In this document: positions 992-4,455 of the stretch, piece by piece
Layout of the letters: each line of letters opens with the position of its first letter
Position numbering within the stretch: the stretch's first letter is position 1
From: a virus
Lineage: Duplodnaviria > Heunggongvirae > Uroviricota > Caudoviricetes
Reading direction: 5' to 3' (one strand)
Virus record (IMG/VR): IMGVR_UViG_2706794673_000001
Length of the DNA: 4,455 nucleotides
Translations under genes and position numbers: made by a program
Notes under the pieces: generated by a model
Told to the model about the DNA's origin: nothing
Seen by the model: the letters and a program-made list of their open reading frames with translations, nothing else
Database searches by the model: none

Positions 992-1307
992 GCAACTGAC
1001 AACCAAAGAACTCTGCGGTCAGGGCCTGCTGTGCGTGACTGACCTGGCGGTACTTGAGCGGTGGTGCGTGGCCTATGAGTTCTGGCGACGTGCCGTGAAA
1101 AATATTGCCATACAGGGCAACACCATCACCGGTGCAATGGGCGGCAGGGTCAAAAATCCGGAGCTGACCGCCAAAAAAGAACAGGAGTCCGAGATGAGCA
1201 GCACGGGGGCAATGCTCGGACTCGACCCCAGCAGCCGCCAGCGTCTGATTGGCCTGGCGGGGCAGAAGAAAGCCACTAACCCGTTTCTGAAAATTATCGA
1301 ATCATGA
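992..1307 (+). CDS. Terminase small subunit (P27-family type), 5' end hidden in the N-masked block
   Basis: Frame-0 ORF is open from the N block to TGA at 1305-1307. The visible 105-aa C-terminal part ([104 protein letters not shown]) has the character of P27-family small terminases, e.g. the ...[10 protein letters not shown]... tail. Its stop overlaps the TerL start (ATGA). Confidence 0.8.
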
Positions 1308-3026
1308 GCCGGAAATCTTACCCCAACGTAAATGCTGCAAATCAGTATGCCCGGGATGTCGTGCGCGGAAAGATTGTTGCCTGCCAGTTTGTGATTCAGG
1401 CCTGCCAGCGCCATCTTGATGACCTGATGGCGGAAAAAAGTAAGTCGTTTCGTTACCGCTTCGACAAGGACCTGGCTGAACGGGCCGCGAAATTTATTCA
1501 GCTGTTGCCGCACACCAAGGGGGAGTGGGCATTCAAACGGATGCCCATCACGCTGGAGCCGTGGCAGCTATTTGTGATCTGCTGTGCGTTTGGCTGGGTC
1601 AATAAAGGCACCCGGTTGCGCCGCTTCCGGGAGGTGTACACCGAAATCCCCCGTAAGAACGGCAAATCAGCAATCTCTGCCGGTGTTGCCCTGTATTGTT
1701 TTGCCTGTGATAACGAGTTTGGCGCGGAAGTGTATTCCGGTGCCACGACAGAGAAACAGGCGTGGGAAGTCTTTCGCCCGGCGCGACTGATGTGTAAACG
1801 CACACCCATGCTGACGGAAGCGTTCGGGATTGAGGTTAACGCCTCAAACATGAACCGTCCGGAGGATGGCGCGCGGTTTGAACCGCTGATCGGCAACCCA
1901 GGTGATGGTTCATCACCCCACTGTGCCGTGGTTGATGAATATCACGAGCATGCCACCGATGCGCTTTATACCACAATGCTTACCGGGATGGGGGCGCGAC
2001 GTCAGCCACTGATGTGGGCCATCACCACCGCCGGGTACAACATTGAGGGGCCGTGCTACGACAAGCGGCGGGAAGTCATCGAGATGCTCAACGGCTCGGT
2101 GCCTAANNNNNNNNNNNNNNNNNNNNNNNNNNNNNNNNNNNNNNNNNNNNNNNNNNNNNNNNNNNNNNNNNNNNNNNNNNNNNNNNNNNNNNNNNNNNNN
2201 NNNNNNNNNNNNNNNNNNNNNNNNNNNNNNNNNNNNNNNNNNNNNNNNNNNNNNNNNNNNNNNNNNNNNNNNNNNNNNNNNNNNNNNNNNNNNNNNNNNN
2301 NNNNNNNNNNNNNNNNNNNNNNNNNNNNNNNNNNNNNNNNNNNNNNNNNNNNNNNNGCAGTTCGAGGGGCAGCCGTGCATTCTGGCCTTTGACCTGGCGC
2401 GTAAGCTGGATATGAACAGCATGGCGCGACTTTATACCCGCGAGATTGACGGTAAAACGCATTACTACAGTGTGGCCCCGCGTTTCTGGGTACCGTATGA
2501 CACGGTGTACAGCGTCGAGAAAAATGAAGATCGACGGACAGCCGAACGCTTTCAGAAATGGGTGGAAATGGGCGTTCTGACCGTTACCGATGGTGCGGAG
2601 GTGGATTATCGCTACATCCTCGAGGAGGCCAAAGCGGCGAACAAAATCAGCCCGGTCAGTGAGTCACCCATCGACCCCTTCGGGGCGACCGGGTTGTCAC
2701 ATGACCTTGCTGATGAAGACCTGAATCCCGTCACTATCGTCCAGAACTTCACCAATATGTCCGATCCGATGAAAGAGCTGGAAGCAGCGATTGAATCGGG
2801 ACGTTTTCATCATGACGGCAATCCCATCATGACCTGGTGTATCGGCAACGTGGTCGGCAAAAACATGCCGGGTAACGATGATGTGGTGAAACCCGTCAAA
2901 GAGCAGGCGGAAAACAAAATCGATGGTGCAGTTGCGCTGATTATGGCGGTTGGCAGAGCCATGCTGTACGAGAAAGAAGACACGCTGTCTGACCACATTG
3001 AGTCCTACGGGATCCGCTCGCTTTAA
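1304..3026 (+). CDS. Terminase large subunit (ATPase + nuclease), HK97-like; interior masked by N at 2107-2356
   Basis: N-terminal part (1304-2106, frame 2) carries Walker A PRKNGKS (1649-1669), Walker B AVVDEYHE and a TTAG coupling motif. C-terminal part (2357-3026, frame 0) carries RNase H-like nuclease motifs (ILAFDLA ... [13 protein letters not shown]) and ends IRSL-TAA at 3024-3026. Total span of about 574 codons fits a single uninterrupted TerL. The two visible parts are in different frames, and the 250-nt N block cannot reconcile them, so the mask length is probably not the true length. Confidence 0.9.
2107..2356. other. Masked / undetermined sequence (250 N) inside the terminase large subunit gene
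   Basis: Continuous run of n characters between the ATPase and nuclease domains of TerL. Confidence 0.95.
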
Positions 3027-3037
3027 CTGAGGTAATT

Positions 3038-3220
3038 ATGATCATGCTGATTCTCGCGCCTCTGGTGGGCGTGCTGGGTGCGCTTTTGCTGGCGTATGGT
3101 GCCTGGCTGATTTATCCCCCGGCGGGTTTTGTTGTTGCCGGGGCGCTGTGCCTGTTCTGGTCGTGGCTGGTGGCGCGATATCTCGACCGTACACGGCAGT
3201 CTGTCGGCGGAGGTAAATAG
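3038..3220 (+). CDS. Small hypothetical membrane protein (60 aa, two predicted transmembrane helices)
   Basis: ATG 3038 (second ATG at 3044) preceded by GAGG at 3029-3032 with 5-nt spacing, 11 nt after the TerL stop. Translation [60 protein letters not shown] has two hydrophobic segments separated by a PPAG turn and a basic C-tail. Its stop TAG (3218-3220) overlaps the portal GTG start by 1 nt. No similarity to a characterised family that I recognise. Confidence 0.55.
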
Positions 3221-4376
3221 TGTTCTTTTCGGGATTATTTCAACGAAAAAGCGATGTGCCGGTGACCACGCCAGCAGAACTGCTGATGCTATCGGGCTGT
3301 CATACGACACCTATACCGGAAAGCGGATCAGTAGCCAGCGGGCCATGCGCCTGACGGCGGTCTATTCTTGCGTCAGGGTGCTGGCAGAGTCTGTTGGTAT
3401 GCTGCCCTGCAGTCTCTACAAAATCAGCGGTACCCTGAAAACACGGGCGGTGGATGAACGACTGCATAAGTTGGTTTCGGCAAAACCTAATGGCTACATG
3501 ACACCGCAGGAATTCTGGGAGCTGGTTATTGTCTGCCTGTGTCTACGGGGGAATTTTTACGCCTACAAGGTAAAGGCACTGGGAGAAGTGGTGGAGCTTC
3601 TTCCGATAGATCCGGGCTGTGTGGAACCGAAGCTGAACAGCCAGTGGCAGCCGGTTTATCAGGTGACGTTTCCGGATGGTTCCGTGGATGTGTTGACCCA
3701 GAATGAAATCTGGCATGTGCGCACCCTGACGCTGGATGGACTTGTCGGGCTGAATCCCATTGCGTATGCGCGTGAGGCCATTTCACTGGCAGCGGCAACC
3801 GAGGAGCACGGTGCCAGGTTGTTTAGTAATGGTGCGGTGACATCCGGTGTGTTGCGTACGGAACAAAAGCTCACGCCGGATGCTTACGAGCGTCTGAAGA
3901 AAGATTTTGAGGAGTGTCACACGGGGCTTGGCAATGCTCACCGCCCGATGATTCTGGAAATGGGGCTGGACTGGAAGTCGATGGCGCTGAACGCCGAGGA
4001 CAGTCAGTTCCTGGAAACCCGCAAGTTTCAGCTGGAAGAAATCTGTCGTCTGTTCCGGGTGCCGTTGCACATGGTGCAGAACACCGATCGCGCCACCTTC
4101 AACAATATCGAAGAGCTGGGGCTGGGATTTATCAACTATTCACTGGTGCCGTATCTGACCCGCATCGAACAGCGGATCAACACCGGACTGGTACGAAAAA
4201 GTAAGCAGGGCGTTTATTACGCCAAATTTAACGCCGGGGCGTTACTGCGCGGGGATATGAAGTCCCGTTTTGAAGCCTACGCCACCGGGATCAACTGGGG
4301 AATTTACTCTTCCAATGACTGCCGCGACCTGGAAGATATGAATCCGCGTCCCGGTGGTGTAATGCCGATCAGTTAA
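3220..4376 (+). CDS. Portal protein, HK97 family; apparent frame disruption near 3305-3315 (possible pseudogene or sequence error)
   Basis: The body (frame 0, about 3300-4376: ...YTGKRISSQRAMRLTAVYSCVRVLAESVGMLPCSLY ... GINWGIYSSNDCRDLEDMNPRPGGVMPIS, stop TAA 4374-4376) is a typical HK97-type portal. Frame 0 has no ATG/GTG with an RBS after the previous gene; the ORF-track start at 3129 is a TTG buried in the small membrane ORF. A strong start exists in frame 1: GGAGG (3209-3213) then GTG 3220, giving MFFSGLFQRKSDVPVTTPAELLMLSGCHTT..., which stops at TGA 3352-3354. The frame-1 N-terminus and frame-0 body would join by a 1-nt change near 3308-3314. Confidence 0.8.
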
Positions 4377-4408
4377 GGATCAGTTGACCGATCCAGTGGC
4401 TGTGTAAG

Positions 4409-4443
4409 AATCCGGAAACGCTCACTTGTTTCCGGATTTTTTT
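4409..4443 (+). terminator. Rho-independent (intrinsic) terminator downstream of the portal gene
   Basis: Perfect inverted repeat: tccggaaac (4411-4419) pairs with gtttccgga (4428-4436), extendable by two A-T pairs (4409-4410 with 4437-4438). Loop is 8 nt (gctcactt), followed immediately by a run of 7 T (4437-4443). Orientation is + strand; on the - strand the hairpin is not followed by a U-tract. Confidence 0.7.
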
Positions 4444-4455
4444 ATGCACATTGGA

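Follow-up and report, generated by a model that had tools for sequence, protein, structure and literature searches.

The gene ymfR (b1150) of Escherichia coli K-12 is located in the cryptic prophage e14 of strain MG1655, in between aaaE, a remnant of the gene for the large terminase subunit (TerL), and beeE, a remnant of the portal gene. Its product is labeled 'IPR020297 domain-containing protein YmfR' in RefSeq, and its counterparts in phages phiP27 (L37), ST64B (Sb3), SfI and SfII are annotated as membrane proteins or putative integral membrane proteins. We report here on a member of this family encoded by an open reading frame (ORF) of 60 amino acids at positions 3038–3220 (+ strand) of a 4,455-nucleotide stretch of DNA from a virus of the Caudoviricetes (IMG/VR record IMGVR_UViG_2706794673_000001), referred to below as the window. 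Searches of the literature for ymfR, sb3, IPR020297 and genes between terminase and portal found no functional study of the family; matches on Microbacterium phages and SPP1 were irrelevant.

As a sequence feature the gene itself changes nothing, annotated already as it is in model phages, in K-12 and, among complete E. coli genomes, in about 30%. Its value lies at the level of the family: this y-gene is as conserved as the portal gene, sits at the junction of TerL and portal at every locus examined, overlaps the portal start at almost all of them, and moves with the portal in mosaic exchanges. We regard its identity, its coding status and its module membership, taken together, as close to certain; the role that we propose for it below is held much more loosely.

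Identity and breadth of the family

The window protein is 58/60 identical (97%) to K-12 YmfR in a gapless alignment, and its residues 1–55 align with positions 3–57 of the 58 positions of the phrog_502 'membrane protein' profile (E-value 2.8e-28). The spacing of ymfR in e14 is also that of the window, with an 11-nucleotide (nt) gap after the TerL remnant and a 1-nt overlap with beeE. An earlier note on this DNA, made from its letters alone, had found no described family for the ORF; the profile search and the identity with YmfR supply one, and the gene is already known and catalogued as a member of the YmfR/phrog_502/phiP27 L37/ST64B Sb3 family.

The family is widespread. A 501-base query (window 2900–3400) matches 1600 of 5426 complete E. 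coli genomes (~30%), and among the matches listed for these genomes the ORF is annotated 'ymfR: protein YmfR'. A word-indexed search returned 166 clusters at 90% identity, and a profile search of 1.84 billion representatives returned 402 clusters at 50% identity (E ≤ 0.001), nearly all of 45–75 amino acids. Neither Pfam nor NCBIfam has a model for it; scanned with the ORF and with distant members, they returned unrelated membrane families below threshold and nothing else. Nearly identical enterobacterial prophage sequence was also seen under the record titles 'MAG: Bacillota bacterium', 'Martelella alba' and 'Enterococcus phage Efm 3-10'; in these three oddly titled records it likely reflects contamination or mis-binning rather than real host range.

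Coding status

Selection on the ORF was examined with 35 homologues from Enterobacterales, Halomonadaceae and viral contigs, using pairwise ratios of nonsynonymous to synonymous substitution rates (dN/dS) by the Nei–Gojobori method. The sense frame is open in 35/35 homologues, with dN/dS of 0.19–0.31, and on this sequence evidence we take ORF 3038–3220 to be a genuine protein-coding gene under purifying selection, as the earlier note had supposed. That note had also named the overlapping antisense ORF 3023–3310 as the gene that might be real instead, and had asked for the coding pattern to be checked. The antisense ORF (95 amino acids) is indeed open in the window and its nearest relatives. 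Its frame, however, contains 1–5 stop codons in 24/35 homologues, this frame and one of the other two antisense frames give dN/dS above 1, and the antisense product has no family match in PHROG, Pfam and NCBIfam scans. The antisense ORF was accordingly rejected, and the probability that 3038–3220 is a chance open frame, or that 3023–3310 is the true gene, is in our judgment next to nil.

Translational context

The ORF starts 11 nt after the TerL stop codon (TAA, 3024–3026). The ribosome-binding site that had been attributed to it is present as a Shine-Dalgarno sequence GAGGT at 3029–3033 (+ strand), of which GAGG 3029–3032 lies 5 nt 5' of the ATG at 3038; this GAGG is conserved at the same place in enterobacterial homologues. 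At the other end the stop codon TAG (3218–3220) shares G3220 with the portal start GTG (3220–3222, the start as annotated in phiP27), which bears out the overlap described before. The Shine-Dalgarno sequence of the portal gene, GGAGG at 3209–3213 (+ strand), lies within the last codons of the small ORF, where it encodes a conserved C-terminal G-G. In 35/35 homologues the codons of the C-terminal G-G-[E/D/K] supply GGAGG, GGGGG or GAGG as the Shine-Dalgarno sequence of the portal gene, always equally far from the portal start. The tail as a whole is less constrained than the transmembrane (TM) core (pooled pN/pS, 0.79 vs 0.40), and these last residues are conserved because their codons form the portal's Shine-Dalgarno sequence.

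The overlap is a family trait. Its length is 1 nt in 35/35 close loci; among distant loci it is 1 nt in 64/75 and 4 nt in another 6, for a total of 105/110 loci (~95%; 99 of 1 nt and 6 of 4 nt). In Halomonadaceae there is a further overlap, between the start of the small ORF and the stop of TerL (ATGCTGA). In the window, no site resembling a promoter or terminator was found next to 3038–3220, the nearest promoter-like site on the + strand being at 2497–2525. Because the ORF has no promoter or terminator site of its own, overlaps the portal start and embeds the portal's Shine-Dalgarno sequence, it would be made only with the late head operon, in line with the earlier suggestion that it is probably translated with these genes, and translation of the portal is physically coupled to it through the shared base and the embedded site. 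In K-12, ymfR is up by 4.5 log2 with other e14 genes under SOS-inducing treatment (PMC10012262).

An arrangement of this kind could matter more for the portal than for the peptide. The ORF might be a translational device that sets or localizes portal translation by termination and reinitiation, the hydrophobic nascent chain pulling the mRNA to the membrane and the finished peptide having little function. The stop/start overlap in about 95% of the 110 loci and the Shine-Dalgarno sequence within the last codons both suit such a device, and the Shine-Dalgarno sequence accounts for the C-terminal G-G-[EDK]. It does not account for the purifying selection on the amino acids, by which a pattern G-x-x-G...YGAW..Y-x-PAG[FY]I has been kept across 402 clusters, and HK97-type phages that lack the gene couple the portal directly to TerL. 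We consider a purely translational function improbable.

A fixed position between TerL and portal

The surroundings of the gene were surveyed in two collections. A genome scan, taking one genome per species, gave 30 loci, whose neighbors were checked by tblastn. Viral contigs, scanned with distant members, yielded 80 loci; 28 of these were non-redundant and had both neighbors, and were checked by Pfam. An initial viral-contig scan had returned near-identical loci only, which were of little use for evolutionary tests, and was replaced by the genome scan and the scan with distant members. In all 30 genome-scan loci the C-terminal part of TerL is encoded directly upstream and the portal directly downstream. 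The same order of TerL, hairpin and portal genes is found in the window, ST64B and phiP27, and the genome loci and reference phages checked by tblastn number 32 in all. In 28/28 viral loci PF20441 (TerL nuclease) is matched by the ORF upstream and PF04860 (portal) by the one downstream. None of the 58 related loci examined (the genome scan giving 30 and the viral contigs 28) lacks a gene of the YmfR family, down to TerL and portal identities of 35–39%. The synteny extends to Halomonadaceae loci in which the small protein is 46–58% identical, and TerL and portal are 35–40% identical, to those of the window.

The gene is absent from some other HK97-type modules. In HK97 itself TerL and portal overlap by one base, and no hydrophobic ORF is found in any frame at the junction. 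The junction is equally tight, with no hairpin gene, in Burkholderia phi1026b, Pseudomonas phi2 and Pantoea AH07, whose portals are 33–37% identical. Among the lineages examined, such absence occurs only in distant ones. Vibrio phage K270 has a member-like hairpin of 67 amino acids at the junction, and two relatives from Gram-positive hosts have unrelated genes there.

These results change how the locus should be described. The earlier note regarded the ORF as inserted into a junction that is normally tight and as a candidate moron, and proposed a survey of HK97-like relatives. That survey, as given above, found a relative of the gene between TerL and portal in 32 tblastn and 28 Pfam loci. The junction is tight in HK97, phi1026b, phi2 and AH07, yet a large HK97-type clade carries the gene exactly there. 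Morons come with a promoter and a terminator of their own, and the prophage expresses them; this gene has no promoter-like or terminator-like site at its flanks, is coupled on both sides, and belongs to an ancient synteny. Judging from the sequence comparisons, it is probably neither a recent insert nor a classic or lysogenic-conversion moron. The GC content of the ORF is 60.7% against 54–55% in the flanks, and 67% at third codon positions against 53% in TerL and 65% in the portal gene; its composition, rich in Leu, Ala and Gly, can explain the difference.

Co-inheritance with the portal

The hairpin diverges at about the pace of the portal. Over 1540 pairs the mean identity is 43% for the hairpin, 41% for the portal and 34% for the C-terminal part of TerL, so that the structural genes are not outpaced by the peptide. 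The C-terminal part of TerL is less than 45% identical, with the portal more than 70% identical, in 95 locus pairs, and in these YmfR is 53% identical; the reverse pattern was found in zero pairs.

Phage SfV (NC_003444) provides an example of exchange. Its TerL is 96% identical to that of the window until about 20 residues from the C-terminus, the DNA similarity ends near window position 2945, and the portal of SfV is 28% identical to that of the window. The breakpoints in SfV indicate that the exchanged unit was the tail of TerL together with the hairpin gene and the portal gene. Taken with the locus pairs, these sequence data indicate that recombination can replace TerL while leaving hairpin and portal genes together.

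The predicted membrane hairpin

Residues 1–46 of the window peptide contain zero charged residues and have a grand average of hydropathy of 1.16; the charges of the tail are R47, D50, R51, R53 and K60. An AlphaFold2 model built from a 28-sequence alignment has helices at residues 2–25 and 27–57, with a mean predicted local distance difference test score of 74.8. Combining hydropathy, the model and conservation, we predict TM helix 1 at residues 2–25 (3041–3112, + strand), with conserved G11, G14 and G21-x-W23; a conserved short turn Y-P-P-A-G at residues 26–30 (3113–3127, + strand); TM helix 2 at residues 31–46 (3128–3175, + strand), with conserved G35, C38-L39 and W41-S42-W43; and a variable basic tail at residues 47–60 (3176–3217, + strand), the last codons of which are constrained by the portal's Shine-Dalgarno sequence. 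By the positive-inside rule both ends of the peptide are predicted to be cytoplasmic and the turn periplasmic. The two-helix hydrophobic peptide with a basic tail that the earlier note had described is thus also what hydropathy and the structure prediction give, and the 60-residue product is very probably a membrane hairpin, its insertion being predicted.

The sequence of the hairpin has a recognizable core. The window peptide carries the invariant columns of the family alignment, G-x-x-G...G-x-W...P-A-G...C-L-x-W-S-W, and the core across the 402 clusters reads G-[LVI]-x-G-x-x-L-x-S-Y-G-A-W-[LM]-[IV]-Y-x-P-A-G-[FY]-I-x-x-G, in which Y-x-P-A-G-[FY] is the best-conserved element of the wider family. 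This core exceeds generic hydrophobicity. Four relatives of 102–122 amino acids (P0156, P0173, P0186 and P0196) are tandem duplications, having four helices in two hairpin units. Such natural fusions suggest that single hairpins pair, or act as dimers or larger assemblies, in the membrane. A search of PDB sequences with the family profile found no related solved structure. Comparison of the AlphaFold2 model with BFVD by Foldseek returned uncharacterized viral hairpins only, none at E < 0.001; the search covered BFVD, and a two-helix hairpin is too simple for informative fold matching.

What, then, might a conserved membrane hairpin do? Exclusion of other phages is a frequent activity of small membrane proteins of phages, such as HK97 gp15, and the peptide could be a late membrane effector that acts on a host inner-membrane protein in superinfection exclusion or anti-defence, which is the moron explanation of the earlier note and of the PHROG category. 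Conservation centered on the membrane part and the periplasmic turn suits a membrane partner, the PHROG category of phrog_502 is 'moron, auxiliary metabolic gene and host takeover', and the distribution among HK97-type modules is patchy, the gene missing in HK97, phi1026b, phi2 and AH07. Cargo genes, however, normally turn over fast, whereas this one keeps strict synteny at every checked locus from Enterobacterales to Halomonadaceae and changes at a rate as low as that of the portal. There is coupling to the genes on either side and no promoter-like or terminator-like site beside it, and since its expression follows prophage induction it would not protect a lysogen. An effector of this kind seems to us unlikely.

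A holin-like, antiholin-like or lysis-timing peptide of the class II type, with both ends cytoplasmic, that modulates membrane integrity late in infection is another candidate, since class II holins and pinholins are of similar size and likewise have two TM helices, the topology predicted here and a C-terminal tail with charges. The window copy even begins M-I-M, a possible dual start. This motif is not conserved, as relatives begin MIL, MFL or MLT, and the dual-start idea was dropped. No holin family was matched in Pfam, NCBIfam or PHROGs at E up to 1, nor was any by distant members, and the gene is never in a lysis cassette; in the window, Rz/Rz1 (58–363) are separated from it by the HNH, small terminase subunit (TerS) and TerL genes. 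An ASKA clone over-expressing ymfR was recovered growing at 0.1 mM isopropyl β-D-thiogalactopyranoside (PMC10299036), which argues against a lethal membrane lesion. A lysis function is, in our view, very improbable.

A possible role in head assembly

The role that we propose follows the association with the portal gene. The peptide would be expressed with the late head operon, its translation coupled to that of the portal, and would insert into the inner membrane with both termini in the cytoplasm. Its glycine-rich helices may let hairpins pair or oligomerize. The hairpin might then serve as a portal-linked accessory factor that brings portal synthesis, or the initiation of the portal ring or prohead, to the inner membrane, or acts as a chaperone there. 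A precedent exists in T4, in which the gp20 portal initiator assembles on the inner membrane, aided by the viral factor gp40 (PMC9958956). The precedent is a loose analogy of role and not one of membership.

One further observation may be relevant. Portals linked to a hairpin gene open directly with M-F-[FWLVM]-[PS]-x-[LM]-F (35 cases), whereas the four portals that come without one (HK97, phi1026b, phi2 and AH07) have a basic or charged extension of 10–20 residues before a similar hydrophobic motif. The pattern is suggestive, the four portals without the gene being too few to judge by.

Several points weigh against a portal-linked role. The conserved residues lie in the membrane helices and the turn, while the parts that a portal could reach, the cytoplasmic N-terminus and the tail, are variable. 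HK97, phi1026b, phi2 and AH07 have related portals (32–37% identity) and no hairpin gene, so the hairpin is not needed for HK97-type assembly generally. The partial rank correlation of YmfR divergence with that of the portal is just slightly above that with TerL (0.35 vs 0.24; the pairs are non-independent and p-values not meaningful). The linkage with the portal could simply be due to the lack of recombination sites in a 1-nt overlap. T4 gp40, finally, is hydrophilic, unlike YmfR, and homology between the two was considered and rejected (hhalign probability 0.07%).

On balance, a packaging or assembly accessory factor, close to one of the candidates of the earlier note, fits the evidence better than a moron, and the role remains putative. 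The explanation as a whole, with the portal-linked role included, is tentative and in our estimate falls short of an even chance. The assembly role of the hairpin taken by itself we would call possible but somewhat doubtful. More doubtful still is the broadest form of the idea, in which YmfR hairpins would be an unrecognized membrane-embedded component of head assembly or packaging in a large HK97-type clade of Proteobacteria and, through their translational tie to the portal gene, would make the inner membrane the site at which portals are synthesized, rings form or proheads are initiated. Were it true, membrane-nucleated head assembly, documented mainly for T4, would be widespread among temperate phages. 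The regularities of the family make this a clean testable hypothesis, and the gene is a well-defined knockout target in phiP27 or an Sf phage.

State of the window copy and neighboring genes

The earlier note missed that the downstream portal gene of the window is not intact. The gene (3220–4359, + strand, with PF04860 Phage_portal matching 3291–4373 at E 2.1e-107) has a 1-bp deletion between 3281 and 3282, a −1 frameshift, relative to ST64B and phiP27 in the alignment. The frame that starts at GTG 3220 ends at 3354, beyond which ORF 3129–4376 gives the reading frame of the remaining portal. Five IMG/VR contigs (L004–L008), which are 100% identical to the window over the unmasked stretches covered, have the same deletion; it is absent from 73 of the 80 viral loci, two further loci being unscorable. 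As it is common to five contigs, the deletion is a feature of the lineage and not a read error. The 3' end of the portal gene is cut by the end of an IS4 element at 4355–4455, a 101-base stretch that matches 'IS4-like element IS4 family transposase' regions at 100%; a single E. coli genome has as many as 32 such places. Beyond 4359 the similarity to intact portals is lost, and the element truncates the portal about 35–40 codons before its normal end.

With a portal that is both frameshifted and truncated by IS4, the head module of the window is dead and the prophage defective. The intact 183-nt ORF is then probably a relic, as ymfR is in e14. Shigella flexneri CP182557.1 has a second copy (L095, ~3494–3682) with a 1-bp deletion in the region of the P-P-A-G turn that frameshifts ymfR, which indicates that copies of the gene do decay in degraded prophages.

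Upstream, the TerL gene (1304–3026, + strand) is in two parts around an N-masked run, with PF03354 (TerL_ATPase, E 1.6e-26) and PF20441 (TerL_nuclease, E 7.2e-22) found by Pfam scan. The masked runs are 706–991 (286 bases) and 2107–2356 (250 bases); they hide part of the HNH/TerS region and the middle of TerL, and ORFs listed across them are masking artefacts. The TerS gene ends at 1307 and an HNH endonuclease gene starts from 406. The window opens with Rz (58–363; PF03245, E 2.4e-45) and, nested inside it in the +1 frame, Rz1 (119–301; PF06085, E 6.4e-20). These form an ordinary embedded spanin pair, and the lysis cassette of the window is thus upstream of its packaging genes.

Comparison with known systems

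[quoted passage not shown] It is acidic and hydrophilic, however, with no hydrophobic hairpin, and its gene neighbors uvsX and gene 41, a long way from that of the T4 portal. Class II holins and pinholins such as S21 68 are alike in size and topology, whereas the window ORF is linked to the portal, lies outside the lysis cassette and is tolerated when over-expressed. Morons of the HK97 gp15 type are also small membrane proteins encoded among virion genes; the window gene differs in having no promoter or terminator and in being ancient at its position.

In phage lambda a small gene, W, separates gene A (large terminase) from gene B (portal), and its product gpW is a soluble virion-completion (head-tail joining) protein. 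In four phage records the features within the matched stretch include a 'head-tail joining protein W'. Identity with gpW was rejected; no gpW family was found in Pfam at E up to 1, and residues 1–46 are uncharged and hydrophobic. The label looks like an annotation by position, taken from the A-W-B order of lambda.

SfV carries at 2289–2450 an unannotated two-helix ORF of 53 amino acids between TerL and portal, which matches phrog_7105 (E 3.2e-22). Members of phrog_7105, in SfV and in Klebsiella and Edwardsiella phages, occupy the same junction and have two hydrophobic helices with a basic tail. The SfV hairpin has an ATGA overlap with the TerL stop, and the Shine-Dalgarno sequence and start of the portal gene lie inside its 3' end. 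It gives a weak match to phrog_502 (E 5.7e-6) in which the conserved glycines align, and is 31% identical to the window ORF while belonging to a separate PHROG. The annotated portal start of SfV, GTG 2392, is probably over-extended, as GTG 2440 after AAGGGGG gives an N-terminus of the usual type (MLLDALF). Two annotation habits are corrected by this comparison, the positional 'head-tail joining protein W' and the over-extended portal start that swallows the small ORF, as in SfV.

The closest systems remain those named at the outset. Compared with e14, the window prophage is more complete though also defective, and keeps Rz/Rz1, HNH, TerS and a full TerL. The gene itself shows no substantive difference from K-12 YmfR, phrog_502, phiP27 L37 and ST64B Sb3, having the same length, the same 11-nt gap and the same 1-nt overlap with the portal.

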